From the NCBI GenBank assembly GCA_964528565.1, contig CAZGSP010000061.1, positions 1 to 48,072 of the forward strand: a stretch of 48,072 nt of DNA. Direction: 5' to 3'. Of this stretch, positions 21,298 to 38,001 are shown one piece after another. This DNA is from an uncultured Pseudomonadales bacterium. Its GTDB lineage: Bacteria; Patescibacteriota; Microgenomatia; UBA1400; MFAQ01. The translations under genes and the position numbers were made by a program. The notes below the pieces were generated by a model. That model did not search any database. It was given only the letters and a program-made list of their open reading frames with translations, and had not been told where the DNA came from. Position 1 is the first letter of the stretch. Each line of letters begins with the position of its first letter.

Positions 21298-21306
21298 CAT
21301 TTAATA

Positions 21307-21329
21307 ATTTTCCCCCTCGCGGGGAAAAT
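21307..21329 (+). terminator. Hairpin after tRNA-Lys (ATTTTCCCC-CTCGC-GGGGAAAAT)
   Basis: A 9-bp stem lies 10 nt after the tRNA. The downstream sequence is AT-rich but is not a clean T-run. Confidence 0.4.
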
Positions 21330-21475
21330 ATTAAATATTGACATAGCGGGATCTCGAATGACGGAGCCGTGTCGACGGCGAGTCGGGGCCTGAGGGAAAC
21401 TCAGCAGAGTTTTACCGAAAGGAGTCCCGCCTCTCGAGTTTTGGTCTGTCGGAGGAGTCCCGCATAAATATTTTT

Positions 21476-21548
21476 GGCCCCGTCGTCTAGTGGTTAGGAC
21501 GTCAGGTTTTCATCCTGAATATCGCGGGTTCGAGTCCCGCCGGGGTCA
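21476..21548 (+). tRNA. tRNA-Glu (anticodon UUC)
   Basis: Acceptor GGCCCCG/CGGGGTC (one G-U pair), anticodon arm TCAGG-TTTTCAT-CCTGA, T-arm GCGGG-TTCGAGT-CCCGC, discriminator A. CCA is not encoded. Confidence 0.9.
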
Positions 21549-23029
21549 CCCTCATTTTGATTACCACCTGAAAGGGTGGTAATTGCTTGAAAGAGCGGTC
21601 CAATTTGTGAGTTCGAAAAGCCTGGAAACGAGTAAATCACTCCATTTGGAAATACTGCTCTCTGTAAATCTGTTTTTGTTGATATATCAGCGTCAAACCA
21701 AAACAAGTGAAGGGTTCGAAAGAAGTTGTCGGCGAAAGACAATAACATGTCCAGTTTTATCTCTTCCCCGTGACTTTGATTTACCTCAAGCTTGAGTTGA
21801 AGTAATTTTGACTTTATCTTGGCTAGTTGCTCTCTTGCGTCGTCTTCATCCAAAACCTCACTACTAGCCAGGTCAATGACCCTTTGTTTTTTGGCTTCCC
21901 AAACAAGTATTTCTTTTCGCGCTCTCTTAGAAGTATCTTCCGCCGTTTCCATTTCGTCCTCAAACTTCTTGGTAAGTTTTACCTTGACGCTTTCCCACCG
22001 TTCAGGGTTGGGCCTCACGCCTTTGAGGAACTCTAGGAAGGCATTTTCTATGACGTGTTTGTCCACAGACTTGACCCCTGGATTGGTACAGGCTTTGTTA
22101 TGGCAGTAGTATTTATAGTATTGCTTGGTGTTACCTTTTACAGGAGAGGCTGTCATTTTCTTCCCGCAAAAACTACAAATAAGGTTGTCTCTCAGTGGGC
22201 ACAATTCATTTATAGTTAGTTTGGTGGCTTTGAGTGGGTTTATCCTCTCTTGGCAAGTTCGAAAGGTTTCTATATCAATCAGCGGTTTATGCCTGCCTTC
22301 GTATTCTTCCCCCACACTTGGCTTAAGTATTCCAATATAGAAGGGGTTTTGAAGGACTTTCAAAACGTACGTTCGCGAGAAGTTTATTTTTTGACCTTTG
22401 AAGTTCTTTATATTTTTCTCAGTCAGCCAATTTGATATTTCGGTAACGCTTCCGCCATTGGCGTGTTTCTGGAATATTTTTGTGAAGTAGTCCGCACAAC
22501 CTTTATCTAAAATGGCCACATCGGCTTTACCATTGTCGGTTTGTTTATTGATGTAACCACCTGGAGCTTTCCATGGCCATATTCCATGACTCAAAAGGTT
22601 CTTCATGGCTAGGTTTACTCTTTCTTTTTTAACTTCGTTTTCGAATTGGGCAATAGCGACCATTACTGCTTCTGTAAGCCTCCCTGAGGGCGAGTCTTCA
22701 AGCCTCTCAGAAGCCGAGACTATCGTCATTCCCTTTTTAGTCAGTTCGGATTTGATGTAGTAATAGACTGGAGAGCTCCTAGCTACTCTATCTATTTTGT
22801 AGAAAACAACAAAATCAGCTTGTCCTTTATATTTTTCGCAAAACTCCAATAGGCGGGCGACTCTTTTCTCATTTGTTTCTTTTGCACTTTCCGCCTCTAC
22901 AATGTCGGTTCCAATTACTTCCCAGCCTAAATTTTTACAGTGATTTCTACACTGCTCAAGCTGTACCTCAGTGGAGGTATTACCGATTTGCTTCGGGTCG
23001 GAGAATCTTGTCGTTATTAAAGCTTTCAT
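21494..23029 (-). CDS. Large serine recombinase (integrase)
   Basis: It has an N-terminal resolvase domain (ITTRFSDPKQ with catalytic Ser; KIDRVARS), a recombinase domain, a zinc ribbon (CSFCGKKMTASPVKGNTKQYYKYYCHNKAC) and a coiled-coil stretch. The last 55 nt of the ORF are antisense to tRNA-Glu. Confidence 0.9.
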   Translation of the reverse strand: MKALITTRFSDPKQIGNTSTEVQLEQCRNHCKNLGWEVIGTDIVEAESAKETNEKRVARLLEFCEKYKGQADFVVFYKIDRVARSSPVYYYIKSELTKKGMTIVSASERLEDSPSGRLTEAVMVAIAQFENEVKKERVNLAMKNLLSHGIWPWKAPGGYINKQTDNGKADVAILDKGCADYFTKIFQKHANGGSVTEISNWLTEKNIKNFKGQKINFSRTYVLKVLQNPFYIGILKPSVGEEYEGRHKPLIDIETFRTCQERINPLKATKLTINELCPLRDNLICSFCGKKMTASPVKGNTKQYYKYYCHNKACTNPGVKSVDKHVIENAFLEFLKGVRPNPERWESVKVKLTKKFEDEMETAEDTSKRARKEILVWEAKKQRVIDLASSEVLDEDDAREQLAKIKSKLLQLKLEVNQSHGEEIKLDMLLSFADNFFRTLHLFWFDADISTKTDLQRAVFPNGVIYSFPGFSNSQIGPLFQAITTLSGGNQNEGDPGGTRTRDIQDENLTS

Positions 23030-23246
23030 TTTTATTCGAACTTACGTCAATTTTACCACCAAAAGAGGTAGTTTGGATGGACTTTTTGAAGGCGTCAAAA
23101 ATCATTTGGACTAGCAGGTCTTCTTGGGCTTCTATAGAAAGTTTCTCTTTTGTGACCACGACATAAACGACTAATTAGTCGGCTAGTCATTCACAAAATT
23201 ACTTTTGGAATATTTCGGCCAATAATCGCTTACTGGTCCTTTCGAC

Positions 23247-23450
23247 TCAGGAACCGCTTGAGTCTTGTTCGCCTTGTTGGTTCTTTATTTCTCGAAATAT
23301 CTCAAACGACATTGCAGTACATCCACACTTTTGGCAAAGCACACCGTCTGTTTTTTTCTTATTCACCCATCCTCCACAAATTTGGCCATTGTGCTTGTGG
23401 TCGCATTTTATTTTGACTGTTTTGTCTTCTTCCATGAGGACAATATACAC
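23247..23450 (-). CDS. Small zinc-ribbon protein
   Basis: It has C-x-H ... C and C-x2-C-x-C (KCDHKHNGQICGG ... LCQKCGC). It is 67 aa, or shorter if the start is MEEDK. Confidence 0.4.
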   Translation of the reverse strand: MYIVLMEEDKTVKIKCDHKHNGQICGGWVNKKKTDGVLCQKCGCTAMSFEIFREIKNQQGEQDSSGS

Positions 23451-23548
23451 TTTATATACGGAGGTGTCAAGGAATATACTGATATATCAAGGTTTATATA
23501 CTACTATAATTTAGGCAGTTTGACAAGTGTCCGTGCTAGAATACTGAT

Positions 23549-24013
23549 ATGACAACCAAAAATGACCCAGAGGTGAAAGGGGGCGTTTTTACTAGACCTT
23601 TTAACTTACCTCAGCCTTTACTTTGGGTCATGTGGTCACTTTTTTTAGCGGTTTTAATTTTATTGATATTCATAGTTTCTTCTGACCCAGGGGCGGAAGA
23701 CGCGGGTTACACGATTTTGTTTATGGCTTTCCTGGTGGTTTTTACCTATCCTGGGAAAAATTTTCAGACAAAAGTACTTGCCTTAGGAAAAAAGTTAGAA
23801 GAGCTAGTGACCGTTGTGATTACATGGATTATTTATGCGGCGATAGGTTTAGGAGCTTTGTGGTTGTTGTTTTCGGGTGTGTCTTGGTTGTTTTCGGGAA
23901 GTAGCGGACCAAGCATTGAAGACCAAGTGGAAGACGCGGCTCAGGACGCCGTAGATGATTTTAAGTCAAACTGTTACGAGAAGGGCAGTGTCCTCATTTG
24001 TCCAAACGATTAA
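23549..24013 (+). CDS. Small multi-pass membrane protein with an acidic C-terminal tail
   Basis: It has three to four hydrophobic helices (LLWVMWSLFLAVLILLIFIV, ILFMAFLVVF, IIYAAIGLGALWLLFSGVSWLF). It is the only plus-strand gene in the leftward module. Confidence 0.5.
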   Translation: MTTKNDPEVKGGVFTRPFNLPQPLLWVMWSLFLAVLILLIFIVSSDPGAEDAGYTILFMAFLVVFTYPGKNFQTKVLALGKKLEELVTVVITWIIYAAIGLGALWLLFSGVSWLFSGSSGPSIEDQVEDAAQDAVDDFKSNCYEKGSVLICPND

Positions 24014-24378
24014 ACCAACCTAAACCTTTCGTACTTTGGGTTACCTCCTTTTGGAAAATATAAAAACCCTTTCCCGTGTGGCATTACCCATCGTGGTAGC
24101 CAGTAAAGCCTGCTAATCGCGAATTCGTCGTCCAAGACAAGTACGACAAAATCATCAGCGAAGCACCTCTCAAACCTGGTGAAGTTTATTTGGAAGAAAC
24201 CCCCCTTTCTTAACTTTCGTGTTTTTACTTCTAGTCTTCTTGTCTTCCCCTCAGTCGGTACCCGAACATCATAGGAGCGTTTTCCTGGTTCTGTACCTTT
24301 GAATAAATTTTTAATAATTTCCTGACCCAATACCCCAAGGTAGTAGGCTTTTCTTTTCTGTAGTGTGGTTTGTTTCAT
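24010..24378 (-). CDS. Small protein with a PD-(D/E)xK-nuclease-like motif
   Basis: SYDVRV ... RRLEVKTRK gives a D ... E-x-K arrangement at the spacing typical of restriction-endonuclease-fold proteins. This is motif-level evidence only. Confidence 0.35.
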   Translation of the reverse strand: MKQTTLQKRKAYYLGVLGQEIIKNLFKGTEPGKRSYDVRVPTEGKTRRLEVKTRKLRKGGFFQINFTRFERCFADDFVVLVLDDEFAISRLYWLPRWVMPHGKGFLYFPKGGNPKYERFRLV

Positions 24379-24416
24379 TGTTTTTATGTATGGTTAGTGG
24401 TCATGTACCCCAGAAG

Positions 24417-24716
24417 TTATTGAGAGACCGTGTTACAAGCCTCTCCCAGCCCTACCATTGATTTTTCTATGAGGTCGTAAACTTTAATAATTGTTTTCTC
24501 CATGTCTTTAAGCTGGGAAACTTTCTTGGCATTCTTTTTGAAGAGAATTTCAGCTAAATACTCAAAAAGATTGGCAAGGTTTGGGTGGTACGTTCTTTCG
24601 GACCATTCAATGTCCCCGTTTCCTCGAACTCTTTTATGGGTTGCCAGAATCCACTGGTATTCGTCCACCAGAACGGCGAACTTTGGTTTTTTTGACTCGA
24701 AAATGATTTTTGTCAT
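24417..24716 (-). CDS. Hypothetical protein (99 aa)
   Basis: The ORF is in operon context, with a 4-nt overlap with the upstream gene. No family was recognised. Confidence 0.45.
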   Translation of the reverse strand: MTKIIFESKKPKFAVLVDEYQWILATHKRVRGNGDIEWSERTYHPNLANLFEYLAEILFKKNAKKVSQLKDMEKTIIKVYDLIEKSMVGLGEACNTVSQ

Positions 24717-25156
24717 TTGTTTTTAGTATTGGTTTTGATAGTTTCATTTTTCTTCAGTTCCCGAACCTTATTCATGTACTGCCTCATGTAAATTCTTCTT
24801 TTCTCCCTTTGCTCCTCATTTCTTCTTTGGTAAATCAGTCTCAACAATGCCCGTCGATTAGCTACGCGACACTCCTCACACAGAATCTTTCTGAATTCTC
24901 TAGGTTTGCCACAGCGACAAAGTTTTTCTGTGAGAGAAGACTTTCTGTAGGCTTTTTGGTATTCCATGATGTGCTCGTGGTTTTTGGCAAGGTAGATTTT
25001 CCTTTTTTCCTTCAGCTCCTCCTTGTGCTTTAATTGGTAACGTTTGTTTGTCTCTTGCTTCCACTTCTTTTCTTTCTTGGTTCGACACTCCTCACAGAAA
25101 TGCTGATATGGCTTGCTTTGGAATGTGTGGTGGCAGGATGGGCAGGTTTTTTCCAT
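24713..25156 (-). CDS. Basic double zinc-ribbon protein with an internal duplication
   Basis: There are two modules, CPSC-x12-CEEC followed by a Lys/Arg-rich helix, and CRC-x10-CEEC followed by an Arg-rich helix. The HFCEECR / ILCEECR motif is repeated. Confidence 0.5.
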   Translation of the reverse strand: MEKTCPSCHHTFQSKPYQHFCEECRTKKEKKWKQETNKRYQLKHKEELKEKRKIYLAKNHEHIMEYQKAYRKSSLTEKLCRCGKPREFRKILCEECRVANRRALLRLIYQRRNEEQREKRRIYMRQYMNKVRELKKNETIKTNTKNK

Positions 25157-25171
25157 GGTTTTTAATAATTT

Positions 25172-26014
25172 TTAAAATCTTTCTTTTAGCCAGTCGTGTT
25201 GTTCTCCACGTCTCAGCCAGTTGTTTAGATACGCTTGGTAATTTTTTACGGTCTTACCTTCCGCTTCCAGGTAGTCGTAAGCTTTCTCCCCTTCCGTGAC
25301 TACGTCGTTAACTTCCATTTGGTAGACAATCGCCAAGTGTTCTAGTTCCTCATCGGGGATATTTTTGAGCCATTCCTTGTTTCCAGTTCCCGCTAATCGC
25401 GAATTGGGGGTGTCTGTATCTGAAGCTTCTACCTCTCCTACGTTATCTACGTTACTTACGTTATTTACATAAATACTTTTATTACTGATTACTTTGTTTA
25501 CCTTGAGAGAGAAACCTAAAGAAACACCCCTTATGTAGGCACGAATTCGTTTCACCCATGAAACAGACTGTTTCACCCATGAAACGGCAGGCACGAAATC
25601 CATGTAAAGAAAACTGTCATTTTGTGCGTAGTCCGTTTCACCTATGAAACGGAAGGCTTCCATAAATAGTTTCTTGTTACTTGCTCTGTGGCAGAATAAA
25701 TCAAGTGCGTCTGTGGGAATTAGCCGACCATTATCTAAGCGCAAGACTAGACCAACAGCGATAAGTTTGTTCACATCTCTTGAGATTGACGGCTTACTTC
25801 TTCCGCTCATTTCTGACAATTCGTCGTATGACTCTCTAACCTCAAGCCAGTCAATTTTTCTACAGTCCCACACGGCGAGCGTGAGAAGTAATTCCCAAAT
25901 AATGAACTCGCCCTCTGACAAGCTTTTTTCTTTTTTAACTGTCCATCTACTTCGTGGCATGGGTTGCCAACCTTTCAAACTGTTTTTATTGGTTATCTTT
26001 CTCCAGTTACCCAT
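25172..26014 (-). CDS. Replication-initiator-like protein (winged-helix N-domain, repeat-encoded linker, C-terminal helical domain)
   Basis: It has an HTH-like segment (SYDELSEMSGRSKPSISRDVNKLIAVGLV) and a C-terminal ...KNYQAYLNNWLRRG resembling the DnaD/replisome-organiser type motif. Iteron-like DNA repeats sit in the middle of the gene. Confidence 0.5.
   Translation of the reverse strand: MGNWRKITNKNSLKGWQPMPRSRWTVKKEKSLSEGEFIIWELLLTLAVWDCRKIDWLEVRESYDELSEMSGRSKPSISRDVNKLIAVGLVLRLDNGRLIPTDALDLFCHRASNKKLFMEAFRFIGETDYAQNDSFLYMDFVPAVSWVKQSVSWVKRIRAYIRGVSLGFSLKVNKVISNKSIYVNNVSNVDNVGEVEASDTDTPNSRLAGTGNKEWLKNIPDEELEHLAIVYQMEVNDVVTEGEKAYDYLEAEGKTVKNYQAYLNNWLRRGEQHDWLKERF
25439..25468. repeat. 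3.3 tandem copies of the 9-bp unit TACGTTAYY, next to an AT-rich stretch
   Basis: The sequence is TACGTTATC TACGTTACT TACGTTATT TAC, followed by ATAAATACTTTTATTACTGATTACTTTGTTTA. Confidence 0.7.
25549..25650. repeat. Three copies of a 16-bp dyad-symmetric iteron GTTTCACC(C/T)ATGAAAC
   Basis: The copies lie at 25549-25564, 25570-25585 and 25635-25650. The first two are exact and 21 bp apart start to start. Each has 6-bp inverted arms GTTTCA/TGAAAC. Confidence 0.7.
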
Positions 26015-26246
26015 TTAAGTTCTCCTTTCTCAAGGTAACTTTTTTACTTAGTTCCCCAGGTATTTTTTCCATGGTAATGAAGCCAGCTCTTTCTAATCTT
26101 TTGAAGGCGGCGTTTACATCCTGTTTTCTCGCCCCTAAGTCATCAGCTAGTCCAGACTGTTTACCGTTAAAAACTTCTTCACTTCTGAGAATATCCAGGA
26201 TTGTTCTTTCTATCCAACCTAATTTTTTTGGTGTGTTATAAACCAT
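26007..26246 (-). CDS. Small winged-helix DNA-binding protein (MarR/ArsR-like), first gene of the leftward operon
   Basis: WIERTILDILRSEE...QSGLADDLGARKQDVNAAFKRLERAGFI matches the wHTH recognition-helix pattern. Confidence 0.55.
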   Translation of the reverse strand: MVYNTPKKLGWIERTILDILRSEEVFNGKQSGLADDLGARKQDVNAAFKRLERAGFITMEKIPGELSKKVTLRKENLNG

Positions 26247-26273
26247 TTTGTATTTGTGTTAATAAATATTTTT

Positions 26274-26475
26274 GGAAGAAGTGGGGAGGCACAACCCATC
26301 CCCCACTCTTCCGATTGAGGCCCAAATGACTCATCAACATTTGGTAAAGCTAAAAAAATTAGCTCTTCAAGCAACTCTGTTTTTCCAATCCAGTAGCGGG
26401 ATAAGGAAATTCAAATTTGTTTGAAGAGCTTTTTAGTAAAGTCTCTTTAACCTGTAATAAGGTTTAACAGGTTAA
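26274..26475. promoter_or_regulatory. Divergent control region with three inverted repeats
   Basis: IR1 is GGAAGAAGTGGGG (26274-26286) / CCCCCACTCTTCC (26300-26312), imperfect. IR2 is AGCTCTTCAA (26361-26370) / TTGAAGAGCT (26421-26430). IR3 is TTAACCTGT (26447-26455) / ACAGGTTAA (26467-26475). Confidence 0.45.
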
Positions 26476-26517
26476 AAAGAGCTTGTCAATACCCTAATGG
26501 ACCTGTAGTCTATTCTT

Positions 26518-26757
26518 ATGGTAAGAGGAAAACCCAAAATACAAATCAGTTTAGAAAACAGATTGGCATTAAAACCAGGCATGTTGTACACCAGTAAGGA
26601 ATTAGGAGAAATATTTCGAGTTAGTTATAGTTCCGTCAAGAGGATAGTAAGGTCTGGTCTTATAAGTTTTTCTGTTGTAGGCAAGAGAAAAAGATTTTCG
26701 ACCGAAGATGTTATAGATTTTCTATCAAAAATTACTAAGGTTGGAATCATCGATTAG
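26518..26757 (+). CDS. Excisionase-family / MerR-like helix-turn-helix DNA-binding protein
   Basis: LYTSKELGEIFRVSYSSVKRIVRSGLISFSVVGKRKRFSTEDVIDFL is the classic excisionase-type HTH pattern. It is the first gene of the rightward operon. Confidence 0.6.
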   Translation: MVRGKPKIQISLENRLALKPGMLYTSKELGEIFRVSYSSVKRIVRSGLISFSVVGKRKRFSTEDVIDFLSKITKVGIID

Positions 26758-26765
26758 CAACGCCC

Positions 26766-27137
26766 ATGCCTAACAAACTCGACGAATACTTAGCCAGTGA
26801 AGCCCAGAGTCAATTCTCAGACTCCAAAAGACAAATTATTGAGAGTACCCGCCTGGGCAAGTCGGTTATGTCTCCCAGGGTTGAAGAACTCTACCGCCAA
26901 GGACTAGAGAAAGTCCGCTCCGTTTTTGACTGTGAATATTGTAAACAACCTTACCTCGAAAGGAACTCCAAAAGACAACCACATCTGTGCCCTGGATGTG
27001 AGCCAGGAAGAGACACAATAACCACATATTTAAGAAATAACAAGAAAGCCCACCTCACACAAGAAGACTGTGACAACATCAAAGCCAGTAAGACTGTGCG
27101 CCGTGGTCCTTTCTATTACGGAAGGAAACCCAAATGA
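26766..27137 (+). CDS. Zinc-ribbon protein (123 aa)
   Basis: It has CEYC-x16-CPGC. No family was recognised. Confidence 0.45.
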   Translation: MPNKLDEYLASEAQSQFSDSKRQIIESTRLGKSVMSPRVEELYRQGLEKVRSVFDCEYCKQPYLERNSKRQPHLCPGCEPGRDTITTYLRNNKKAHLTQEDCDNIKASKTVRRGPFYYGRKPK

Positions 27138-27286
27138 TTAAACCACTACCTAAAAAAACATTCTCGCCTACAAAAGAACAACTACAACAACTCCAAGAAC
27201 TGCTTGGGAATATGGCTAAGATAACGCTCAAGGCGGACAAAATATTAATTGAGCTAGATAAAATTCAGTTGAGATTAGAAAAGTAA
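27134..27286 (+). CDS. Small helical ORF (50 aa), not in the supplied ORF track
   Basis: It has an ATGA overlap with the upstream stop. It reads MIKPLPKKTFSPTKEQLQQLQELLGNMAKITLKADKILIELDKIQLRLEK, and the next gene starts 3 nt after its stop. Confidence 0.35.
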   Translation: MIKPLPKKTFSPTKEQLQQLQELLGNMAKITLKADKILIELDKIQLRLEK

Positions 27287-27288
27287 CT

Positions 27289-27606
27289 ATGACCCAGACT
27301 ACATCAAACTGTATCACCTCGCTATATCAATCAGTTGTCGAAGTTTCATACCAAGCCTTAGGCACCAAGCTCTCAATAGATTATCCCGAAACTCACAAAA
27401 AGAGCTTTGAACAAACCCTCAAAATTGTTGACACTTTAGGATTACCTTTAACAGACGATATTATCCAAAGTGAGAGAAGGTTCCTTGAGGCGGAAATAGA
27501 AAAGCGCTACCCTGGTCAACTCGAGGCATTGACCAAGAAGCTGGATAAGCTTATTACCTCCGAGATATTTCCTGTTGAAGTAATAAAGAAGTACAAAAGT
27601 AAATGA
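27289..27606 (+). CDS. Hypothetical protein (105 aa)
   Basis: The ORF is in a tightly coupled operon. No family was recognised. Confidence 0.45.
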   Translation: MTQTTSNCITSLYQSVVEVSYQALGTKLSIDYPETHKKSFEQTLKIVDTLGLPLTDDIIQSERRFLEAEIEKRYPGQLEALTKKLDKLITSEIFPVEVIKKYKSK

Positions 27607-27869
27607 CCGAAGCCAACAGATTAAAGATACTTAATCTTAAAAAGCTTATTTCCAACGTTCGTCAGTACGGTGCCCTGGACTTAGAGGAAGGACTTGACCG
27701 TCTTGAGGAAGCAATAAACAACATGGACACGTTAAATGAGAAAGTGCCCGAGGAGAGGATTAGCGATGTACTGGACTCCACGGAAATAGTCGCGGTAGAG
27801 TTGCTCAAGCAGGCCAAGAGAATTCACACCTATGCCAAACAACAACGCTTAGATAATAGATTAAAATGA
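27603..27869 (+). CDS. Hypothetical helical protein (88 aa)
   Basis: It has ATGA overlaps on both sides. No family was recognised. Confidence 0.45.
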   Translation: MTEANRLKILNLKKLISNVRQYGALDLEEGLDRLEEAINNMDTLNEKVPEERISDVLDSTEIVAVELLKQAKRIHTYAKQQRLDNRLK

Positions 27870-28345
27870 AACGAGAAGACAAGTCAGCCCTTTATGCTTT
27901 GGACCTATTTCAAAAAGCGTGGGACAAGCTAGATGAGGAGGAAATGCACAGCGTTAAGAAGCTCCCGCGTACCAGATACACCCCTCGTATAATTCCTCAA
28001 CACAGAACTTTGTCCGACGTCATTCTTGCCCTTCGAGGTTACAAAGACTATGCCTCTCTAGTAGAAATAATCCCTGCCTTTAAGTTTTTAATAGTTAATG
28101 GATGGGGTATCCGAAAATGCCATGTGTGTGGTCGTGGAGCATTCTGCCATACGACCATGAATCCTGTTATGTGTGCAACGTGCCAGAACCTTGAAGAGAA
28201 AATCTTAAAAGAAAAACCAAGAGCCAAAGTGGCAAGAGAGCTGAGGCGAATGAGGAAGCTTACTGAATTGTCTTTACAAGAAGCTATTTTGTTGGATAAA
28301 CCGAAGTATAGCGTTCCGCCTGTTAGTGCCGAGGTGATTGAGTAG
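27866..28345 (+). CDS. Zinc-ribbon protein (159 aa)
   Basis: It has CHVCGRGAFCH ... MCATC. It is the last gene of the rightward early operon. Confidence 0.45.
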   Translation: MKREDKSALYALDLFQKAWDKLDEEEMHSVKKLPRTRYTPRIIPQHRTLSDVILALRGYKDYASLVEIIPAFKFLIVNGWGIRKCHVCGRGAFCHTTMNPVMCATCQNLEEKILKEKPRAKVARELRRMRKLTELSLQEAILLDKPKYSVPPVSAEVIE

Positions 28346-28786
28346 AATTTGACCCTGGTTCAAAAAGTTTCTTTTGCGGAAGTGTTGTTTGTCCTGTGCG
28401 TAATTTGGTTGTTGGGTGGTCCTGAACTAACCGCCTGTTTTGGTGGATAAGAGACTTTCTTATCTAAGTATTCCAGAAACCCACGCCTACCCATTCACCT
28501 CGGGAATACTTTCACCCCGTATGCGTTCACCTTTCCCTCCCCACCCTAACAACATCCCCACAGAACAAGAGAATATAAAAACAAAATCATCCCGTCTGGG
28601 AGTGGGGGTTTCCTAAGAAGTCACACCCGCCATGCACAAAAGGTTCTTAAGGGGTTATATATACTATCCTACGGGCATGGTCGGTAAACCACTTTTTGAA
28701 GACCTAAAATATTTTTTCCAACACCACACCCCCTTTACAGCAAAAAGTCGATTTAAGAAAAGTTGCCAAAATTTTCCAGTGAATTT

Positions 28787-29862: not shown

Positions 29863-29865
29863 TTT

Positions 29866-30909
29866 CTATATTGACTCACACGCAATCCCATCATCAACCT
29901 TGACGCCGTCAAGCTTCATGGGGTCATTGGTGGCAGTAAAACCACAGCAGTTAAAAAATGTTTGAGCTTCGGAATGAGATGAGAAGTCAGAACAGTCTCT
30001 ATCTGGTGAAGAACAAGAGTATTTACAGGAACCCCCTGAAGTAGCAGGAGCGTTTGTGGGTGCGTTATTAGTTGTCTTGGTAGGTGTGGGGGTAGCTACA
30101 GGACAAGCGTCGTCTGCCCATAAACCTTCTTTATTTTCTTCAGCCGTCCTCTGCGCTTGTTTGTAAATATCACGGTATTTATAAGGGGTGTTGTAAGTGT
30201 ACTCATGGGCGTAACCGTATTCAATCATAGCTTTGCCAAAGTCCTCTCTTCCATCGGCAACCCAGACATACCTCAACAACCTGCTGTATTTATCTCGCTC
30301 TCCCTGTGTCGGGTCGGCTTCGAGCAATACAGTTTTATTGTTCCCCATTACTTCTTTAGCAAAATCAGAGGCCTCTTTTCCAAAACATTCAACAGGTTTT
30401 CTGGGGTCAACCACTTCAGGGGTGTCTATTCCGATTATTCTAATTCTTTCAGTTTTTCCATTTATCTCAACATCAATAGTGTCACCATCAACAACCTTCA
30501 CCATCTTGGCTTCTGTTTTGGTACTTGAGACTTCGGTGGTTGGTGTGACTTCTGGTCTTGTTTCAGCTTGTACTGCGGGGCTGACAGAAATGGTTGTTGT
30601 GGGTGTAACCTCGGTCTTCTCAACAGGAGGAGTGCTGATTGGACTACTCGGAACATTACCCATAAAGGCAAAGCTTAAAACGACACCCGTAATCACTTTC
30701 GCCTTGGTTGAGAGGGCAATGGGTTTCTTGAGGCTTAACAGGTATTTAGAAATTCTTTTCTCTATTGGAGGAACCAACAACGCTGTTACAAGTAAACCCA
30801 GAAGACCCGCTAGAGGTGAGGTTGGAAAGTAAACAATAGCCGAGAGTAAAAAGAAAACACCACCAACCCATCGCAAGAAATTTGTTGACCAAAAAATGGT
30901 TTTTTTCAC
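29866..30909 (-). CDS. Membrane-anchored thermonuclease (staphylococcal-nuclease fold) with a C-terminal Excalibur calcium-binding domain
   Basis: It has N-terminal TM helices and a Thr/Pro-rich linker. The SNase core is VVDGDTIDVE...RIRIIGIDTPE...RLLRYVW...GYA. The Excalibur motif is DCSDFSSHSEAQTFF...DPMKLDGVKVDDGIACE. The ORF starts at a GTG. Confidence 0.8.
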   Translation of the reverse strand: MKKTIFWSTNFLRWVGGVFFLLSAIVYFPTSPLAGLLGLLVTALLVPPIEKRISKYLLSLKKPIALSTKAKVITGVVLSFAFMGNVPSSPISTPPVEKTEVTPTTTISVSPAVQAETRPEVTPTTEVSSTKTEAKMVKVVDGDTIDVEINGKTERIRIIGIDTPEVVDPRKPVECFGKEASDFAKEVMGNNKTVLLEADPTQGERDKYSRLLRYVWVADGREDFGKAMIEYGYAHEYTYNTPYKYRDIYKQAQRTAEENKEGLWADDACPVATPTPTKTTNNAPTNAPATSGGSCKYSCSSPDRDCSDFSSHSEAQTFFNCCGFTATNDPMKLDGVKVDDGIACESI

Positions 30910-31017
30910 TTTACCTATATTTTACTCCTCTCTTGTGTGGGATTGACAAAACACTTTTAGTTTGATGTATTTCAATTATATAGGCTGATGGATTGCGCGT
31001 CCGACGCCTTGCAACTA

Positions 31018-31046
31018 AGAACCCAAAAGGTTCTTTTTTGTTTTTT
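31018..31046 (+). terminator. Orphan rho-independent terminator (AGAACC-CAAAA-GGTTCT + TTTTTGTTTTTT)
   Basis: A clean hairpin plus T-run lies on the plus strand with no plus-strand ORF upstream. A TTGACA lies at 30943-30948. This suggests a short non-coding transcript. Confidence 0.4.
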
Positions 31047-31208
31047 GGAAGTTGGGGTCACTTTCTGGAAGGAGGGTGACCCGAGTTTCCAAAACGGAGG
31101 GAGTGATGTCTGATACTCACAACCTTGCGAAGGAAACCACCTTTCTATCGTCCCCTGCCCTTATCAGGGGACACGAAATTTATTTAATTACAAAACAAAC
31201 ACAACACA

Positions 31209-32462
31209 ATGGCAGAAAAAGGTTTATGGTCAATCGGAAATTTCAATTTACCCGACTTTGGAATTAGTGAGGCGCTGAATATTGGTCCAAAAAATGCTTC
31301 GATAGTTTCTCCCGAAATGTCGAAATGGCAACAGTATTCTGGTCCCATAGGTTCAAATGTCCAACTTTCTCCAAACGCGTCCCCTATCTTGAAAGCAAAC
31401 CAAATCCAGACTCAGCCAAGTGGTGGGTCAGACGGTACACCTCCTAAAACATATTCTAATACTCCTACACCAGAGCCAACTCAAACAGGTGGTGGACTAA
31501 CAGCTGACGTTCTTAGAAGTAAATTTGGTTTCAGTGATGAAAATGTAATTCGCGGAATTTTAAACGACCCAGGTCAAAGACAAAGATATGAAAACGAAAT
31601 GGGTAGTAGTGCTCCGTCAGGACAAGACCCATTCGCCGAACTTTATCAAAGTTCAATCAGTGCTCTGACTGACGCTGAAAAAATGTTCCAAGGTCAAGCT
31701 GAAGAAGCTCGTAAAGGTGTTACCGAACAGGCAGGATTGGCAAGAAGTGCTTATGAAGAAGCTCTAGCAAAATCAAAGGAAGCATATACAACCCAGAGAG
31801 AAGACTTAACCAATGAAGAGAGAATGCTACAAGCTGAGAGTATCAGGGCTTACAACAATTTGAAGCAGTCCTATATGAACCGCTTTGGTGGTGGTTCTAG
31901 CACAGGAGCCGCTTTGGCTGATTTAGTAGGTCAACAATTCATCCGTTCCAGTGGACAACTTCGTGAGAAATATTTGTCAGGTGTCAAAGTTTTGCAGGCC
32001 GCCGAAAGAGACGCCTTCACCAACTTTAATCAAGCAGTCCAGACTCTTGAGCAAAGTATTGTTCAAAGTAACCGTGAGATAAATGCCAACTTGGCAACTG
32101 AACTTCAAAACATCTCAATGCAAAAGGCAGGACTGGAAGATAACAAGCGCGCCATGAGAGAAGAAGCAATGCGCACAGCAATGGCAAACGCTCAACAGCT
32201 ACAGGCGACAAGAGAGCAAAAAATATTCGATTTGGGTTTGTGGAAATTACAAAGGGACGAAGAAATTGGAAAAGGTTCCGCCTTCCTTGACGACTTAGCT
32301 AGTGAAGTAGCTTCAAGTATGAAGTCCCAAAAATACGCCATGCAGAGTGCGGTTCTTCAGCCAAATAGATTCTTTACAGAAAACGGTTCATACAGCATGA
32401 ACCGAACAAGTCCCAAGGGCACCGACCCATACGAAGACGCAGGATTATTAGGTAACCGTTAA
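31209..32462 (+). CDS. Hypothetical protein with a Pro/Thr/Gly-rich N-region and a long Gln/Ala-rich coiled coil
   Basis: The 417-aa ORF is the first gene of the long rightward block. No family was recognised and no clear SD was seen. Confidence 0.5.
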   Translation: MAEKGLWSIGNFNLPDFGISEALNIGPKNASIVSPEMSKWQQYSGPIGSNVQLSPNASPILKANQIQTQPSGGSDGTPPKTYSNTPTPEPTQTGGGLTADVLRSKFGFSDENVIRGILNDPGQRQRYENEMGSSAPSGQDPFAELYQSSISALTDAEKMFQGQAEEARKGVTEQAGLARSAYEEALAKSKEAYTTQREDLTNEERMLQAESIRAYNNLKQSYMNRFGGGSSTGAALADLVGQQFIRSSGQLREKYLSGVKVLQAAERDAFTNFNQAVQTLEQSIVQSNREINANLATELQNISMQKAGLEDNKRAMREEAMRTAMANAQQLQATREQKIFDLGLWKLQRDEEIGKGSAFLDDLASEVASSMKSQKYAMQSAVLQPNRFFTENGSYSMNRTSPKGTDPYEDAGLLGNR

Positions 32463-32465
32463 AAA

Positions 32466-35400
32466 ATGTCCTTTATCGACAATATTTTTAAGCTAGGTCA
32501 ACCTAAGGCGGCTGAAAAAGTTCAGGCCGATATACGGGCTAAGGCTGAGAAGGAAAAGCAGTTCAGCAAAGCTGGTCTTGGTTCTTGGTATTCCTCAATT
32601 GAGAAGCCCGTGGGTTCTTACAACTTCATTGACTATCCGACTCCAAAGCCTGAACTCCCGAAAAATATCACCATGCAAATTCAGGAAGCATTAGATAACT
32701 TCCATAATAAAAATCCCAAGGTGTCTTCATTTCTTGGTGGTGCGATTAGAAGCACCACGGAAATGCTAGCAAAAATTGAGAACACTCTTACCAATAAAGA
32801 GACTCCAATTGGATGGGTCGGTGGTTTTCCTAAAAGAACAGGAGAGGCAATGGCAGGCCAAGCAATAAGTGGTATAGAACAGATTAAGTCACAAACACCG
32901 TCTACGATTCCTTTTACCAATAAAAAAGTAAATGCAAATGTCGCAGGTGTAGGAAAAATAATGACTTCACCTTTAGCCGCTTTTGGAATGGGTTCAATGC
33001 TTGCTGGTGATACTACTGAAGCGTTGACAAAACCTATTTTTGGAAGAAATTCATTAGTTCCTCCATTACTAAATTTGGGAGTCTCCTTAATCACTCCAGG
33101 GAATGAGGTGAAAGATATTCAGAAAGCCCAATCGCTTTTACAAAAACTTGAAAGTGGTGGAGGCAAGCTAACTCAGATACAAAAAGAGTTTAGAGCCCTC
33201 CCCCTTGAGAAAAGATTATCCTACCTAACTGGAAAATTCAGTGACGTCGAACTTACAAAAATGTCAGCTTCATCAGCTTGGGCAAAAATCGAAAGAGTAG
33301 AAAAAGAAACCGAGAAAACTTCCAAGACATTTAATCCAATTTTCGCTAGATGGGTCGCTGGCCGAGACATGGCCAAGTCGTTAGGAGCTTACGAAGCCTT
33401 GTCGGTTCACGTTCCTAAAAACGTGACAGGTGAAACTTTCCTACATAGACTTGAAAACACAATTGGCAAGAGTACCCCCGAAGTCGAAAGAGCTGTTACT
33501 CAAATCAGGGCTAAGCTGGACACGTTACATCGTGAAGCGAAGTCTGCTGGTATTCCCTTGGGTTACTTGGAAAACTATGCTCCTCACTTGTGGAGACAAT
33601 CTAAAGAAGAAGTTGAGGCCATATTTAAGTCTGCTGGCAAATTCAAACACGCAGGAGAAAGAAAAATCCCGACTTATGCGGAAGGTATTGAATTGGGACT
33701 TACCCCATTATTTTCTGATGTTCGTCAGGTTGTCGGACTTTATTCTCAAAGGTTAAGTGAAGCAAAAGCGAATCTAAAATTTATTCAGGATTTAAAACAA
33801 AATAAACTCATTGCCTCAAGTGCAGACAGACTTCCTGGATGGGTCCAAGTAACAGCCGAAGGTTTTCCTAAGTCAGTTATAAAGACGGGAAGTAAAACAG
33901 CTGAGAGTAACTTTTACGCTTCTCCCGAAGTGGCTCAAGTTTTGAATTATATTTTTGGAGTTAAGACCCAAAGTGGCGCGGAGAAGATTATCGCTGGTGC
34001 CGCCAATATTTCAGGAAAACTTCAAGACTTTACTCTAAGCGGTGGTATTCCAAAAACTCCAATAAATGCATGGTCACTTAGTCAGTACTTATTTAAGGAA
34101 GTTCCTGCTGGCCGTCTTACAGGCGGTCCCAAAGCTTTGTACCACTCAATGGTCGATAGTGAAAAGTATTTCGAGACTAACCTACCCATCATCAAGAAAA
34201 TGCAGGAGGCAAATATTCCCATGAATACTTCACTTACTATTCAGAATATTGGCAAGAATTTATTTAGAAATATGGATGAGGGAGATAAGATAAAAACACT
34301 TGGAGGTAATGTCGCCGAGAACTGGAAGAACTTTAATCTGGACAATCCAGGTATTGGTCAAAAATTAGAGATTGTTTGGAACCAGGCAATGAATGAAACA
34401 ACTTTTAAGAAGTTTATGCCAGCCCTACAAATCGAATTTTGGAAGGACACCTACAATGCAATGATAAAAAGCGGTAAGGCAGAAGCAGAAGCCTCCCGCA
34501 TTGCCTCACAGGCCACTAAGAACTTCTACGGAATAACGTCCACAGACACTTTAGCCAAACAAAGTGAGTTAGGGAGAAATATTATCTCCACCATATTGTT
34601 CGCACCACGATATCGCGAAACGATGGTCAATTTTTTAGTGAACACCGCCAAGTCAGTAGCCCATCCCCTATCACCAGAATACGCCGCTAACCGTAACTTT
34701 ATTATTGGAAAAGTTTTGCAGTACGCCATGTATGACCAAGTAAACCAACAAACTACTGGTAACCACATTTGGGATAACCCAGCTGGATATAAAGATAAAA
34801 TTTTAATTAAGACCGACGATGGTTACACAGGAGTTCCTTTCGACTCTTCTATTCTTACCATCCCGCGCGCCATAGGTGCTGTAGGACAAAAGGTGGGCGA
34901 GGGTGACGTCCCTGGTGCCATGACTACAGCCGTTTCGAGGTTTGGGTCCACAGGAATAGCTCCACTTGGTGACTTGTTTAGAAATAAAGATTATTTTGAC
35001 CGCGAAATTGTCAAAGCGACGGACACACCAGAAGAAAAAGCCAAGAAGTCATTTATGTACTTGGTAGGCCGTTGGTCACATCCCTACGCTAGGGAGATTT
35101 TAGACCCCAGAAGTACAGACGACCCACTTTATCAACGCCTAAGCCGTGCCGCTGAATTACCTGTTAAATATTATTCGACAGCAAGTATTGAGTCCGCGAA
35201 TTACTTTAATAATTTAAAGGAGTCGCTTAAGAGTCTCAGTCCAGAGGAGAGGGCAATTGTTGAGAAAAACAACACTCTGAAAGCTGAGAAAAAATTAAAA
35301 CTGGATGAAGACGGTACACCTTCAAACGCCACAAACCAATTCGAGAAAATGGCCAAAGCCGCCGAAAGGTTAGCTTACCCTGGAATTATAAAGGCGGAAA

Positions 35401-35993
35401 CGGAAGCACAACTTAAGACACATGAACAGACAGGAGAACTTGTCAGTCCTTACTACTACTTGGCACCAGAACAGCAAAAGACCATTGAGATGTTAAAAAT
35501 GTTTTTCCCAGGTGACCCTGAGAAAGCAAAAATAATTAAAGCAAATGAGAACTGGATTCAAAGCTACTATTCCAAGCTAAGCGCATATTACGACTACATG
35601 AAAGCCAGTGGGAAGTTTGGCGACGTTATGCAGGAGTCAGGTGCGCCAGTCCAGACACCAGAGTTGAAAGCAAAAATAAATGAGTATTTTGCACTACCTA
35701 CAGGAACGGGTCAAAAGTCTCGTTACCTTATGGCAAATCCAGACTTACAAAAATATTTTACTGATAGTGCTAATTGGAAGAACGCCCAGAGAATGGAACT
35801 AGGTTTATCCCTTCTTCCTGAATATGGTTATGGAAGTGGCGGTAGTAAACCAAGGGGCGCGGTCAAGTCATTTGGTGCTGGTCCAAAACTAAAGACAAGT
35901 ACGCTGAAAATCCCTAAGGTCAAAGTGGCTAAATTAAAAACACTGAAAACACCAAAATTAAAAATTAAACCTTTAAAGGAGAAAAAATTATGA
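32466..35993 (+). CDS. Large hypothetical protein (1175 aa) with a periodic Lys-rich C-terminal tail
   Basis: It is an uninterrupted 3.5-kb ORF starting 4 nt after the previous stop. The tail is PKLKTSTLKIPKVKVAKLKTLKTPKLKIKPLKEKKL. No family was recognised. Confidence 0.55.
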   Translation: MSFIDNIFKLGQPKAAEKVQADIRAKAEKEKQFSKAGLGSWYSSIEKPVGSYNFIDYPTPKPELPKNITMQIQEALDNFHNKNPKVSSFLGGAIRSTTEMLAKIENTLTNKETPIGWVGGFPKRTGEAMAGQAISGIEQIKSQTPSTIPFTNKKVNANVAGVGKIMTSPLAAFGMGSMLAGDTTEALTKPIFGRNSLVPPLLNLGVSLITPGNEVKDIQKAQSLLQKLESGGGKLTQIQKEFRALPLEKRLSYLTGKFSDVELTKMSASSAWAKIERVEKETEKTSKTFNPIFARWVAGRDMAKSLGAYEALSVHVPKNVTGETFLHRLENTIGKSTPEVERAVTQIRAKLDTLHREAKSAGIPLGYLENYAPHLWRQSKEEVEAIFKSAGKFKHAGERKIPTYAEGIELGLTPLFSDVRQVVGLYSQRLSEAKANLKFIQDLKQNKLIASSADRLPGWVQVTAEGFPKSVIKTGSKTAESNFYASPEVAQVLNYIFGVKTQSGAEKIIAGAANISGKLQDFTLSGGIPKTPINAWSLSQYLFKEVPAGRLTGGPKALYHSMVDSEKYFETNLPIIKKMQEANIPMNTSLTIQNIGKNLFRNMDEGDKIKTLGGNVAENWKNFNLDNPGIGQKLEIVWNQAMNETTFKKFMPALQIEFWKDTYNAMIKSGKAEAEASRIASQATKNFYGITSTDTLAKQSELGRNIISTILFAPRYRETMVNFLVNTAKSVAHPLSPEYAANRNFIIGKVLQYAMYDQVNQQTTGNHIWDNPAGYKDKILIKTDDGYTGVPFDSSILTIPRAIGAVGQKVGEGDVPGAMTTAVSRFGSTGIAPLGDLFRNKDYFDREIVKATDTPEEKAKKSFMYLVGRWSHPYAREILDPRSTDDPLYQRLSRAAELPVKYYSTASIESANYFNNLKESLKSLSPEERAIVEKNNTLKAEKKLKLDEDGTPSNATNQFEKMAKAAERLAYPGIIKAETEAQLKTHEQTGELVSPYYYLAPEQQKTIEMLKMFFPGDPEKAKIIKANENWIQSYYSKLSAYYDYMKASGKFGDVMQESGAPVQTPELKAKINEYFALPTGTGQKSRYLMANPDLQKYFTDSANWKNAQRMELGLSLLPEYGYGSGGSKPRGAVKSFGAGPKLKTSTLKIPKVKVAKLKTLKTPKLKIKPLKEKKL

Positions 35994-36361
35994 GAACACA
36001 AATAAGTACATGGAAACAAGGCCAAACCATGGAACAAATTGCGGCCAGATTAGAAGACGTTCTTGGCTGGCAAGAAGCTGAGAAGAATGTCTACGAAGAA
36101 GTGATGGTTAAAAACGGAACCGTTCCTCAGTTTGTCAGTCAGACAGGTAACGCTACTGAGACTGAAATTGGTCGTATAGTCCACGAAAGAACTAACAGAC
36201 CTAATAGAACTTGGGACGAACGCGGACAAGACGCTGTGGAAGACGCCAAACAATTAGAGGCTGAGGAAGAAGCCAGACAAGTAGCCAATGAAAAGAAGTG
36301 GAAAACGAAAGAGCAGGAATACGAAAATATTCTGGACTCATTATCAAAACAAACTTACTAA
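35990..36361 (+). CDS. Hypothetical acidic protein (123 aa)
   Basis: It has an ATGA overlap with the 1175-aa gene. No family was recognised. Confidence 0.45.
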   Translation: MRTQISTWKQGQTMEQIAARLEDVLGWQEAEKNVYEEVMVKNGTVPQFVSQTGNATETEIGRIVHERTNRPNRTWDERGQDAVEDAKQLEAEEEARQVANEKKWKTKEQEYENILDSLSKQTY

Positions 36362-36517
36362 ATGTTTAAACAAAACCAAAAAATCAGTTACGAAGCTGGT
36401 TCGTTACCCAAACAGGGCTCAAGAGACCTGGCCCCTATTGTCCAGGTTCCTGTAACAAAAGAGCCTTTTAACTTGGGCTACGATAAAAACAAAGCTCCGT
36501 TTAAGAAGAAAAAGTAA
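36362..36517 (+). CDS. Small basic ORF (51 aa), not in the supplied ORF track
   Basis: It starts immediately after the previous stop and reads MFKQNQKISYEAGSLPKQGSRDLAPIVQVPVTKEPFNLGYDKNKAPFKKKK. The next ATG follows its stop directly. Confidence 0.3.
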   Translation: MFKQNQKISYEAGSLPKQGSRDLAPIVQVPVTKEPFNLGYDKNKAPFKKKK

Positions 36518-36694
36518 ATGTGGGGTTCTTGCCGAGAGTGTGGAGAGTATGCTTTTTTACGGAGTGACAAATTCTGTTCGGAAGAGTGTTCCAAGAAGCA
36601 AAATAAGCGACTAGCCACGGCCATAAAAGACGGTGTTGATGAGTGGAGAGCGCGGAATGATGTGCGAAAAACTTATGAGAGGCGGAAGGCGTGA
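36518..36694 (+). CDS. Small FCS-type zinc-ribbon protein (58 aa), not in the supplied ORF track
   Basis: It reads MWGSCRECGEYAFLRSDKFCSEECSKKQNKRLA... It has C-x2-C-x12-C-x3-C and the same FC(S)EEC motif as the 24713..25156 protein. Confidence 0.4.
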   Translation: MWGSCRECGEYAFLRSDKFCSEECSKKQNKRLATAIKDGVDEWRARNDVRKTYERRKA

Positions 36695-36711
36695 GGTGTA
36701 AAATCTAGCTA

Positions 36712-37182
36712 GTGGAAGCAACACCTTCGTCAATCACAATAAACCTTGACCCGACAACCTTAGCCGCCTGGTTCGGTGCCATTGTGTCTTTTTTCCTCTT
36801 TCTCTTCGAGATTTTTAAGTATAAAAATGACAAGGGCAAGCTGAGGTTTAGAATTAACTATGACATGGTTTTTGTCGGACAGACACTCAGTGGAGATATT
36901 AAGAAGGCGGAGCCAAAGATACTCTTCTGGACTATCGACCTTTCAAACCCAGGTACTAAAAATGTAGTTTTTAGTCAGATGTTTTTTGATTTTGTAGGAA
37001 CCAAGAAGCATGCCGTCATAACTCGTGACTACTATGGACCAATAAATAAATTTACGCTTCAGCCAGGAGAGTCCCACCAGTTTCTTATTCACCACTCTTT
37101 AGTTAACCCCAAAAAGGTCAAAAGAGTTATGGTCTTGGACGCCGTGGGTAACATATATAAGAAAAGGGTTAGGTATAAGTAA
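36712..37182 (+). CDS. Hypothetical protein with an N-terminal TM helix (156 aa, GTG start)
   Basis: It has a hydrophobic segment (LAAWFGAIVSFFLFLFEIF). It is the last AT-rich ORF before the proposed right end. Confidence 0.4.
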   Translation: MEATPSSITINLDPTTLAAWFGAIVSFFLFLFEIFKYKNDKGKLRFRINYDMVFVGQTLSGDIKKAEPKILFWTIDLSNPGTKNVVFSQMFFDFVGTKKHAVITRDYYGPINKFTLQPGESHQFLIHHSLVNPKKVKRVMVLDAVGNIYKKRVRYK

Positions 37183-37292
37183 GCCTGGCTTCCTGTCCGA
37201 ATAAGTCAAACAGCCTCCTCAACTCGTCAACAATGGTTCCAAAAAGTTCGAGTGAAGTAAATGTGGGGTCACAAATTGCTAAAACGCCGTTG

Positions 37293-37961: not shown

Positions 37962-37992
37962 GTTTTTCTATACTTTGGGTCACAAATTTTGG

Positions 37993-38001
37993 TGGTACAA
38001 T
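37993..38001 (+). promoter_or_regulatory. Extended -10 element (TGGTACAAT) immediately upstream of the 38011 start
   Basis: TG-N-TACAAT ends 9 nt before the ATG at 38011, suggesting a leaderless or near-leaderless mRNA. Confidence 0.4.

Follow-up and report, generated by a model that had tools for sequence, protein, structure and literature searches.

Can a large serine recombinase (LSR) place a mobile element at the 3' end of a tRNA gene, and what becomes of the enzyme when its own gene holds the attachment (att) site? The question is raised by the 48,072-nt contig CAZGSP010000061.1 (GenBank assembly GCA_964528565.1), the whole of which we call the window, where the open reading frame (ORF) of an LSR reads antisense into a tRNA-Glu(UUC) gene. 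We conclude that the window very probably carries an integrative element of ~15.7 kb, spanning 21550-37272, that was set by its own LSR into the extreme 3' end of this tRNA gene (Table 1). The host belongs to Candidatus Collierbacteria, within the candidate phyla radiation (CPR)/Patescibacteria, because the RuvB protein of the window is 89-92% identical to proteins bearing that name; exact-protein look-ups with the window RuvC and PLD proteins gave no matches.

The recombinase gene agrees with the description in a sequence-only reading of this DNA, which had listed a 511-aa minus-strand ORF with resolvase-type, recombinase and zinc-ribbon domains and a coiled-coil stretch, its last codons antisense to tRNA-Glu. 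The ORF overlaps the antisense of the tRNA by 55-58 nt (its final 17-18 sense codons and the stop) and ends in GDPGGTRTRDIQDENLTS; residues 497-511 and the stop codon are encoded by the tRNA-Glu antisense. All three domains scored above the curated Pfam cut-offs: Resolvase (PF00239, 1.5e-21, residues 7-145), Recombinase (PF07508, 5.4e-13) and Zn_ribbon_recom (PF13408, 7.9e-8). In an alignment of the LSR family (A1), the catalytic residues R8, S10, D11, Q14, R81 and R84 were invariant, as were the zinc-ribbon cysteines C285, C288 and C309, with C314 nearly so. The coiled coil was judged on a homolog, P0011 (38% identical to the window LSR), whose structural model (mean predicted local distance difference test score, pLDDT, of 75) contains paired helices at residues 347-394 and 400-427. 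A Foldseek search with this model recovered full-length SPbeta-type, Bxb1, phiC31 and Listeria integrase structures with E-values of 1e-18 to 1e-10, and the model points to both a coiled-coil hairpin in the zinc-ribbon domain and the overall LSR fold. By its domains and residues, we take the window protein to be a genuine LSR. The run of its ORF into the tRNA is not a matter of chance, because the same overlap recurred in every integrated homolog examined.

The extent of the element is marked by composition and by a short repeat. The shift that the earlier reading had seen to the right of the tRNA was evident in GC content, in the CpG observed/expected ratio (o/e) and in the tetranucleotide profile. 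The left flank (1-21474) has a GC content of 0.472 and a CpG o/e of 1.08, and the right flank (38941-48072) of 0.476 and 1.11, compared with 0.418 and 0.76 in the element; the two flanks correlate at 0.945 in tetranucleotide usage, and the element with the flanks at 0.60-0.64. The CpG depletion ends at 37272, and the segment beyond it (37273-38940) has a GC content of 0.405 and a CpG o/e of 0.99. A right end near 37.27 kb, also proposed earlier, coincides with the end of a second copy of GGGGTCAC, the 8-bp sequence that closes the tRNA gene. A repeat search of the element ends found no long direct repeat of the tRNA, the identity being limited to these 8 bp. GGGGTCAC occurs three times in the window against 1.2 expected, an excess that alone is not significant. 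The third copy (31054-31061) does not qualify as a junction, for it scores 9/20 in symmetry, has a flank that does not resemble the empty site and lies in a local hairpin, with the CpG depletion running on past it.

Rejoining the ends yields candidate att sites. The B arm of attB consists of the tRNA-Glu T-arm together with the 3' strand of the acceptor, and the rejoined attP reads AAATGTGGG-GTCA-CCCTCATTT, a quasi-palindrome symmetric at 11 of 20 positions, a level reached at 0.5% of window positions; the crossover dinucleotide is not readable from the sequence. The predicted attP is GAGTGAAGTAAATGTGGGGTCACCCTCATTTTGATTACC and the predicted attB GAGTCCCGCCGGGGTCACAAATTGCTAAAACGCC, with the attP junction as GTGAAGTAAATGTGGGGTCACCCTCATTTTGATTACC and the empty attB as TCGAGTCCCGCCGGGGTCACAAATTGCTAAAACGCCG. 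The P' arm also codes for part of the LSR, and the equivalent stretch varies among family members. It holds a perfect 9-bp inverted repeat, ATTACCACC-N6-GGTGGTAAT (21561-21584), which lies 10 nt past the tRNA within the LSR coding region. A terminator scan passed over this repeat, which may belong to the P' binding site or stand in for a tRNA 3' hairpin. At the other end, the mechanically called methyltransferase ORF starts at 37233, so that its first 20 codons span attR, 13 of them on the element side.

Comparison with relatives of the host indicates that the block was inserted at a conserved site. Scanning metagenomes with RuvC gave 80 loci, and the order tRNA-Glu, tRNA-Lys, ruvC was shared by ~20 Collierbacteria relatives (RuvC 61-86% identical). 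These keep the two tRNA genes and ruvC without the block, the opposite of the shared synteny that the earlier reading had named as a refutation, and no element gene other than the LSR had a counterpart in any fetched relative locus. The contig of the closest RuvB relative (L099) stops just before the tRNAs. ARAGORN and Rfam both called tRNA-Glu on the plus strand where it had first been reported (Rfam score 67 bits against a gathering score of 29). It matches the tRNA-Glu of unoccupied relatives through GGGGTCAC, one D-loop polymorphism excepted, and divergence among all sequences begins directly after GGGGTCAC; this indicates a host gene left intact by integration. In unoccupied relatives the tRNA is followed by AA, then by a hairpin and a T-run, and a terminator scan found no terminator-like site 3' of tRNA-Glu in the integrated state. 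The empty site that the sequence-only reading had called for was found in one relative, L037: its tRNA-Glu is joined to the methyltransferase gene that the window has right of 37272. There, AAATAGCTAAAGTG follows the tRNA directly and shares AAATxGCTAAA with the window right of 37272; the post-tRNA sequence AAATAGCTAAAG matches AAATTGCTAAAA, at 37273 in the window, in 11 of the first 14 nt (binomial p 1.2e-4). Identity to the methyltransferase ortholog of L037 is 77%, and the alignment begins only at residue 23, immediately past the in-frame Met (37293).

The association of this recombinase with tRNA genes extends well beyond the window, and tRNA targeting by a serine integrase, suggested earlier for this one gene, emerged as a property of the family. 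A word-indexed search with the window LSR gave ten homologs (39-46% identity). In their alignment, conservation stops at FPGFSNTKLSPxF and is followed by ~12 variable residues and then by a tail that occurs in two forms, VTPxG(I/V/F)EPxxxG or DPGGxRTRD, both of which result from antisense reading of the acceptor stem and T-arm of a tRNA, in different frames. At 11 independent loci, whose LSRs are 41-46% identical, the ORF overlaps an antisense tRNA-Glu (among them L001, L002, L003, L005/L006, L007, L009/L010 and L011, with L013 and L015 from genome assemblies). The junction always consists of variable element sequence followed by GTGACCCC, and each LSR gene lies at the edge of a mobile-looking gene block with housekeeping genes adjoining. 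In sister LSRs the ORF enters tRNA-Lys, by 49 nt for the second gene in L005 and by 65 nt for that of L016. The L005 region (3780-7404) has a divergent tRNA-Glu/tRNA-Lys pair with two converging LSR genes, one reading into each tRNA, the one at tRNA-Lys being 23% identical to the window LSR; two different elements thus lie back to back on either side of the tRNA pair. Attempts to find the far ends of homolog loci by the mirror of the recombinase-proximal arm gave chance-level matches only, several contigs being probably too short.

When 1.84 billion cluster representatives were searched exhaustively with a profile, 3,668 matched at E 1e-30 or better, the best 150 of which were all below 1e-88. 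A T-loop-antisense motif was present in the last 35 residues of 109 of the 141 full-length representatives (77%), compared with 11% of internal control segments; for its commonest frame the values were 62% and 2.4%. The best LSR match was ~27% identical in sequenced phages and ~26% in sequenced plasmids, and an IMG/VR scan with the family alignment gave a single match, at 24% identity. Together, these sequence comparisons suggest a large, mostly uncultured LSR clade that normally targets tRNA-Glu, tRNA-Lys and probably other tRNAs.

What integration does to the recombinase was approached by reconstruction. When the sequence up to 37272 is joined to 21550, the LSR ORF runs on through a further 31 codons (TFTSLELFGTIVDELRRLFDLFGQEARLTYT) to a stop at 37169-37171, giving 527 aa rather than 511. 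The earlier expectation that integrated and circular forms encode different C-termini thus holds in the reconstruction, but not as a novelty, since streptococcal elements in rumA already show such a consequence (PMC4701971). The further claim that integration rewrites the tail is borne out by the two frames seen across relatives, by the different 31-residue tail of the reconstructed excised form, and by an unrelated ORF with the same tail. In close relatives of the window host, this tRNA-Glu is the site of distant LSR-like ORFs (22-27% identity), of which the one in L026, 22% identical to the window LSR, ends in the same 17 residues as that LSR, DPGGTRTRDIQDENLTS. Because so remote an ORF has the same tail at the same tRNA, it is the tRNA that dictates the tail, which is not inherited with the protein.

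About 20 family members lack a tRNA tail, and theirs align on the pattern LVx-x4-WNx(I/L)(I/V)xx(L/F)xx(L/I). The LV before this predicted helix corresponds to the antisense of CCA plus the discriminator base, and the same LV precedes the tRNA-derived part in integrated members, which places the crossover just before the helix. One such member, L017, is 72% identical to the integrated L013 and diverges from it exactly at GGTGACCC; its downstream DNA and the far end of L013 have in common only a 3.5-kb module ending at the core. The tails of L017 and P0011 are significantly similar (16 of 5000 shuffles), and that of P0011 was modelled as a 22-residue helix (pLDDT ~51-62). A conserved C-terminal helix would thus be a feature of the family. 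As a side observation, the attP-type-tail LSR of L017 (9923-15068) lies in a 468-kb Saccharibacteria contig, with a second LSR-like gene 1.7 kb downstream and a TraG-like ATPase nearby, and this region may be a composite or nested element.

The following mechanism would account for these arrangements. An attP inside the 3' end of the LSR gene would be recombined by the LSR with an attB that has the tRNA-Glu T-arm and acceptor 3' strand as its left arm and the variable downstream spacer as its right. A staggered 2-bp cut would fall inside GGGGTCAC, the dyad symmetry hinting at the T/C step as its centre. The element would bring its own copy of the last nucleotides of the tRNA and so restore the gene on insertion; since such a copy would be needless if the cut fell downstream of the gene, the cut is probably inside it. 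Insertion would sever the LSR ORF ~31 codons short of its natural stop, hence the two lengths, and the integrated ORF would read on to a chance stop in the tRNA antisense, its final 15 residues being whatever the antisense spells. That loss of the helix on integration alters LSR function is plausible, because C-terminal fusions of integrases to recombination directionality factors (RDFs) shift directionality (PMC5737554). It is speculation that convergent transcription from the tRNA gene also dampens LSR expression in the integrated state. More tentatively still, we suggest that a large, undescribed, CPR-centred LSR clade has occupied the tRNA-3'-end niche ascribed to tyrosine integrases and that integration swaps its conserved helix for tRNA-antisense residues. 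Such a swap would act as a DNA-topology switch, with free and integrated enzymes differing, for example, in integration/excision competence or in RDF dependence; we regard this as a possibility with the odds somewhat against it.

Several observations weigh against the integration reading or its extension to the family. The sole empty site comes from a fairly distant relative (L037, RuvC 72%) that has ~190 bp of extra DNA between tRNA and methyltransferase, flanked by two similar AAATWG motifs, and closer relatives have unrelated DNA downstream of tRNA-Glu. The 11/20 symmetry of the rejoined attP is only moderately unusual, and the reconstructed attB has no dyad symmetry. As the 150 representatives come without their genomic surroundings, short peptide motifs are the basis for assigning them tRNA tails. 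The excised-form tail of the window scored 0.8 bits against the family profile of non-tRNA tails, a value equalled by ~3% of shuffles, and pairwise tests against such tails were not significant. Tail conservation is therefore claimed for the family and not for the window copy, for which the claim is confined to an open frame whose hydrophobic pattern is similar. The attP-form genes of L017 and L004 lie within chromosomal contigs, for which composite elements are the sole explanation we offer. Finally, no circular junction or excision product was seen, the exact attP junction was not found in IMG/VR, and activity is argued from the intact gene alone.

The last of these points bears on the best-surviving alternative, that the block is a fixed, immobile remnant whose LSR ORF runs into the tRNA as a harmless, inactive leftover. 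LSR-like ORFs at the same site in relatives do look truncated (L026 aligns from residue 226 and L024 from residue 71), and L024 has a decay-like tRNA fragment beside its intact tRNA. We nonetheless consider a remnant unlikely in the window, where the LSR gene has its full length and lacks none of the catalytic and zinc-binding residues, neither att core is damaged and the 31-codon excised-form extension is still open; the block is also missing from every sampled relative, which argues for a recent arrival.

It is likewise improbable that the element extends to ~38.94 kb (roughly 17.4 kb), taking in the methyltransferase and two small ORFs, with the GGGGTCAC copy at 37265 a coincidence. The GC content does stay low (~0.41) past the proposed end up to 38.9 kb before rising to 0.50, which is a further point against an end at 37272, and in L041 the interval from tRNA-Glu to the PLD gene is of equal length (1.77 kb) and filled by unrelated DNA; the modest surplus of core copies would also allow for a coincidence. 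However, in the element-free L037 tRNA-Glu is directly followed by the methyltransferase ortholog, the post-tRNA sequence of L037 matches the flank right of 37272 (p ~1e-4), the CpG o/e is back at the host value from 37272, and neither a core copy nor a mirror-image arm lies near 38.9 kb. Given its low GC content, 37273-38940 may be an older variable segment. On its own account this segment, with its methyltransferase, two small ORFs and host-like CpG, looks like a variable hotspot, and the DNA between tRNA-Glu and the PLD gene is wholly different among relatives (L041, L038).

Very improbable, in our view, is insertion by another enzyme, such as a tyrosine integrase, with the LSR serving resolution or inversion. 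tRNA 3' ends are the classic target of tyrosine integrases: ProBord found that these prefer RNA regions (PMC13626063), and of the 23 attB sites of tyrosine integrases in M. abscessus, 16 overlap a tRNA or tmRNA gene, no such overlap being mentioned for the six serine-integrase sites (PMC10654092). The element also has an excisionase-like HTH_17 gene. Against this, a tyrosine recombinase domain (PF00589) was present in none of the 27 element ORFs scanned, there is only the 8-bp core and no long tRNA direct repeat, and the recombinase-beside-tRNA layout is kept over 11 loci with otherwise unrelated cargo. That tRNA-Glu itself is borne by the element, whose true left end would lie between tRNA-Lys and tRNA-Glu, is scarcely credible despite odd T-arm-like repeats in the 176-nt spacer, given that recombinase-free relatives keep both tRNAs by ruvC, that their tRNA-Glu is identical bar the one polymorphism and that composition shifts only past the tRNA. 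Integration by the element's own LSR into a resident tRNA-Glu thus remains the reading we prefer.

Table 1. Coordinates of the element, its predicted att sites, the target gene and neighbouring features in the window.
Feature	Position	Strand	Basis or remark
ruvB, ruvA, ruvC	left flank of element		Pfam
tRNA-Lys(UUU)	21224-21298	+	ARAGORN and Rfam; host gene, member of the conserved ruvC, tRNA-Lys, tRNA-Glu block
tRNA-Glu(UUC)	21475-21551 (ARAGORN); 21476-21548 (Rfam)	+	host target gene
LSR gene, integrated form, 511 aa	21494-23029	-	
attL core GGGGTCAC	21542-21549	+	last 8 nt of tRNA: acceptor-stem 3' strand, discriminator A, C74
P' arm	21550-21590	+	also codes for LSR residues ~483-496
Two genes with weak helix-turn-helix (HTH) regulator matches (280 aa, 79 aa)	25172-26246	-	all matches below curated cut-offs
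HTH_17 (MerR/excisionase-type) small DNA-binding protein	26518-26757	+	Pfam PF12728 1.3e-8, above cut-off
Staphylococcal-nuclease-domain protein, 347 aa	29866-30909	-	Pfam SNase 3.9e-23
Two cargo genes, 417 aa and 1175 aa	31209-35993	+	
P arm of attP; segment for the last 31 residues and stop of the excised form	37169-37264	-	otherwise non-coding
attR core GGGGTCAC	37265-37272	+	
B' arm	37273-37292	+	host sequence AAATTGCTAAAACG..., once directly after tRNA-Glu
Host SAM-dependent methyltransferase	37293-37961	+	Pfam; native start probably Met at 37293
PLD-like gene, then NUDIX/NrtR gene	right flank, from 39030		Pfam

The cargo leaves the type of element open. Searching 10 cargo proteins against PHROGs for capsid, terminase, portal and tail genes gave one weak tail-fibre match (4.8e-5), and Pfam scans found no relaxase, coupling protein or type IV secretion gene in the window element. 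Related elements have primases, FtsK- or TraG-like ATPases or a Rep protein, so that the wider group looks, by gene content, more like integrative plasmids than prophages. The HTH_17 protein matches PHROG excisionase families (4e-5) and could be a regulator or an RDF; LSR directionality factors have no common signature (PMC11795197). The nuclease-domain protein matches the PADLOC candidate defence family SNc+LTD (7e-52). The 417-aa and 1175-aa proteins had no match in Pfam, PHROGs, PADLOC or PDB sequences; the larger has only 6 homologs, and its AlphaFold model was unusable (pLDDT 48, predicted template modelling score, pTM, 0.29). Between 25549 and 25650, the palindromic 16-mer GTTTCACCCATGAAAC occurs three times (two perfect copies, one with a single mismatch) at spacings of 21 and 65 nt. 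The copies look, from their arrangement, like operator or iteron sites, and as they fall within the ORF at 25172-26014, that ORF call is possibly wrong.

The tRNA neighbourhood holds traces of other events. tRNA-Lys lies 177 nt upstream of tRNA-Glu, and an Rfam scan found no RNA family beyond these two tRNAs. The intervening spacer (21299-21474, 176 nt) contains two T-arm-like repeats, AGGAGTCCCGCC, at 21420 and 21453, and a GGGATCTCGAATGACGGAGCC motif that resembles DNA downstream of tRNA-Glu in relatives; its length ranges from 4 to 293 nt among close relatives (RuvC 72% or more). Since LSRs that target tRNA-Lys occur (L005, L016), the spacer may be a scar left at the 3' end of tRNA-Lys by an older element. 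A GC-rich palindromic repeat, ATCGCCCGTGCGCCCGCCCNCGCACGGAGCGATGCGAAGGGCTT, is conserved just downstream of tRNA-Glu in several Collierbacteria relatives (L021/L022, L028-L031, L033, L035). In L024 (1380-1660), the LSR-like ORF terminates in 25 nt that repeat the 3' end of tRNA-Glu, with the intact tRNA-Glu ~120 nt further; this fragment could be a decayed earlier insertion or a pseudo-attB, and L023 and L025 have the same post-tRNA flank. The extra ~190-bp segment of L037 (1700-1906) is bounded by AAATAGCTAAAG and AAATTGACTCAA, part of it resembles the window P arm (GTACTAAATGCAC compared with AGTAAATGTG), and it could be a small insertion or an element remnant.

How does this module compare with known systems? 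Canonical LSRs (Bxb1, phiC31, SPbeta SprA, Listeria A118/LI) resemble the window LSR in architecture (catalytic domain, recombinase domain and zinc ribbon with coiled coil) and fold, and likewise use very short attP/attB identities without long flanking direct repeats. They differ in targeting protein-coding or intergenic DNA, whereas the window clade targets tRNA 3' ends, has a predicted attP inside the integrase ORF and is at most 27% identical to phage and plasmid LSRs in collections. The CcrAB recombinases of SCCmec are LSRs that insert at the extreme 3' end of rlmH/orfX without inactivating it; unlike the window element, SCCmec has a protein-gene target, two recombinase subunits and an att site outside the recombinase ORF. 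Islands and prophages of tyrosine integrases that target tRNAs (P4-like) occupy the same niche and carry the same kind of tRNA-end copy that rescues the gene, but typically have direct repeats of 15-60 bp, in contrast to a serine recombinase with 8 bp of identity here. The Myxococcus phage Mx8 reportedly integrates into a tRNA-Asp gene, its integrase C-terminus changing from intP to intX. Its attP lies within int, as here, but Int belongs to the tyrosine recombinases and has a longer core and another catalytic mechanism. This att-inside-integrase layout of the Mx8 enzyme was cited in the work on streptococcal integrative and conjugative elements (ICEs) that target rumA (Ambroset et al. 2016, PMC4701971), in which, as here, the att site lies inside the gene for the serine integrase, and the two forms differ in length and C-terminus. 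In those ICEs, however, the target is a protein gene, and the rumA 3' end is also swapped and frame-shifted, whereas here the tRNA is restored unchanged; they reside in Firmicutes rather than CPR bacteria, and no conjugation genes were detected in the window element.

Among published surveys, the largest on LSR att sites does not contain the word tRNA (PMC10083194), and a preprint on tycheposons reports an LSR in 27 of 937 elements without detail. Our literature search, which was limited, so that an earlier report may exist, found no description of an LSR or LSR clade using tRNA genes. What appears to be new, as far as sequence can tell, is an LSR integration module that combines an unusual target class with a gene-spanning attP; an att site inside the integrase gene was already known.

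If this reading is true, a whole LSR clade acting on tRNA 3' ends would revise the picture of tRNA targeting as the work of tyrosine integrases. It would also provide a first defined integration module for the mobile elements of CPR bacteria, which are at present genetically intractable. Because a highly conserved stretch of tRNA makes up half of each attB, enzymes of the clade might recognise natural landing sites in many genomes, which are sought by integrase prospecting. The family-wide swap of the C-terminal helix, in turn, raises the question of whether the two forms of the protein are unlike in activity or directionality.

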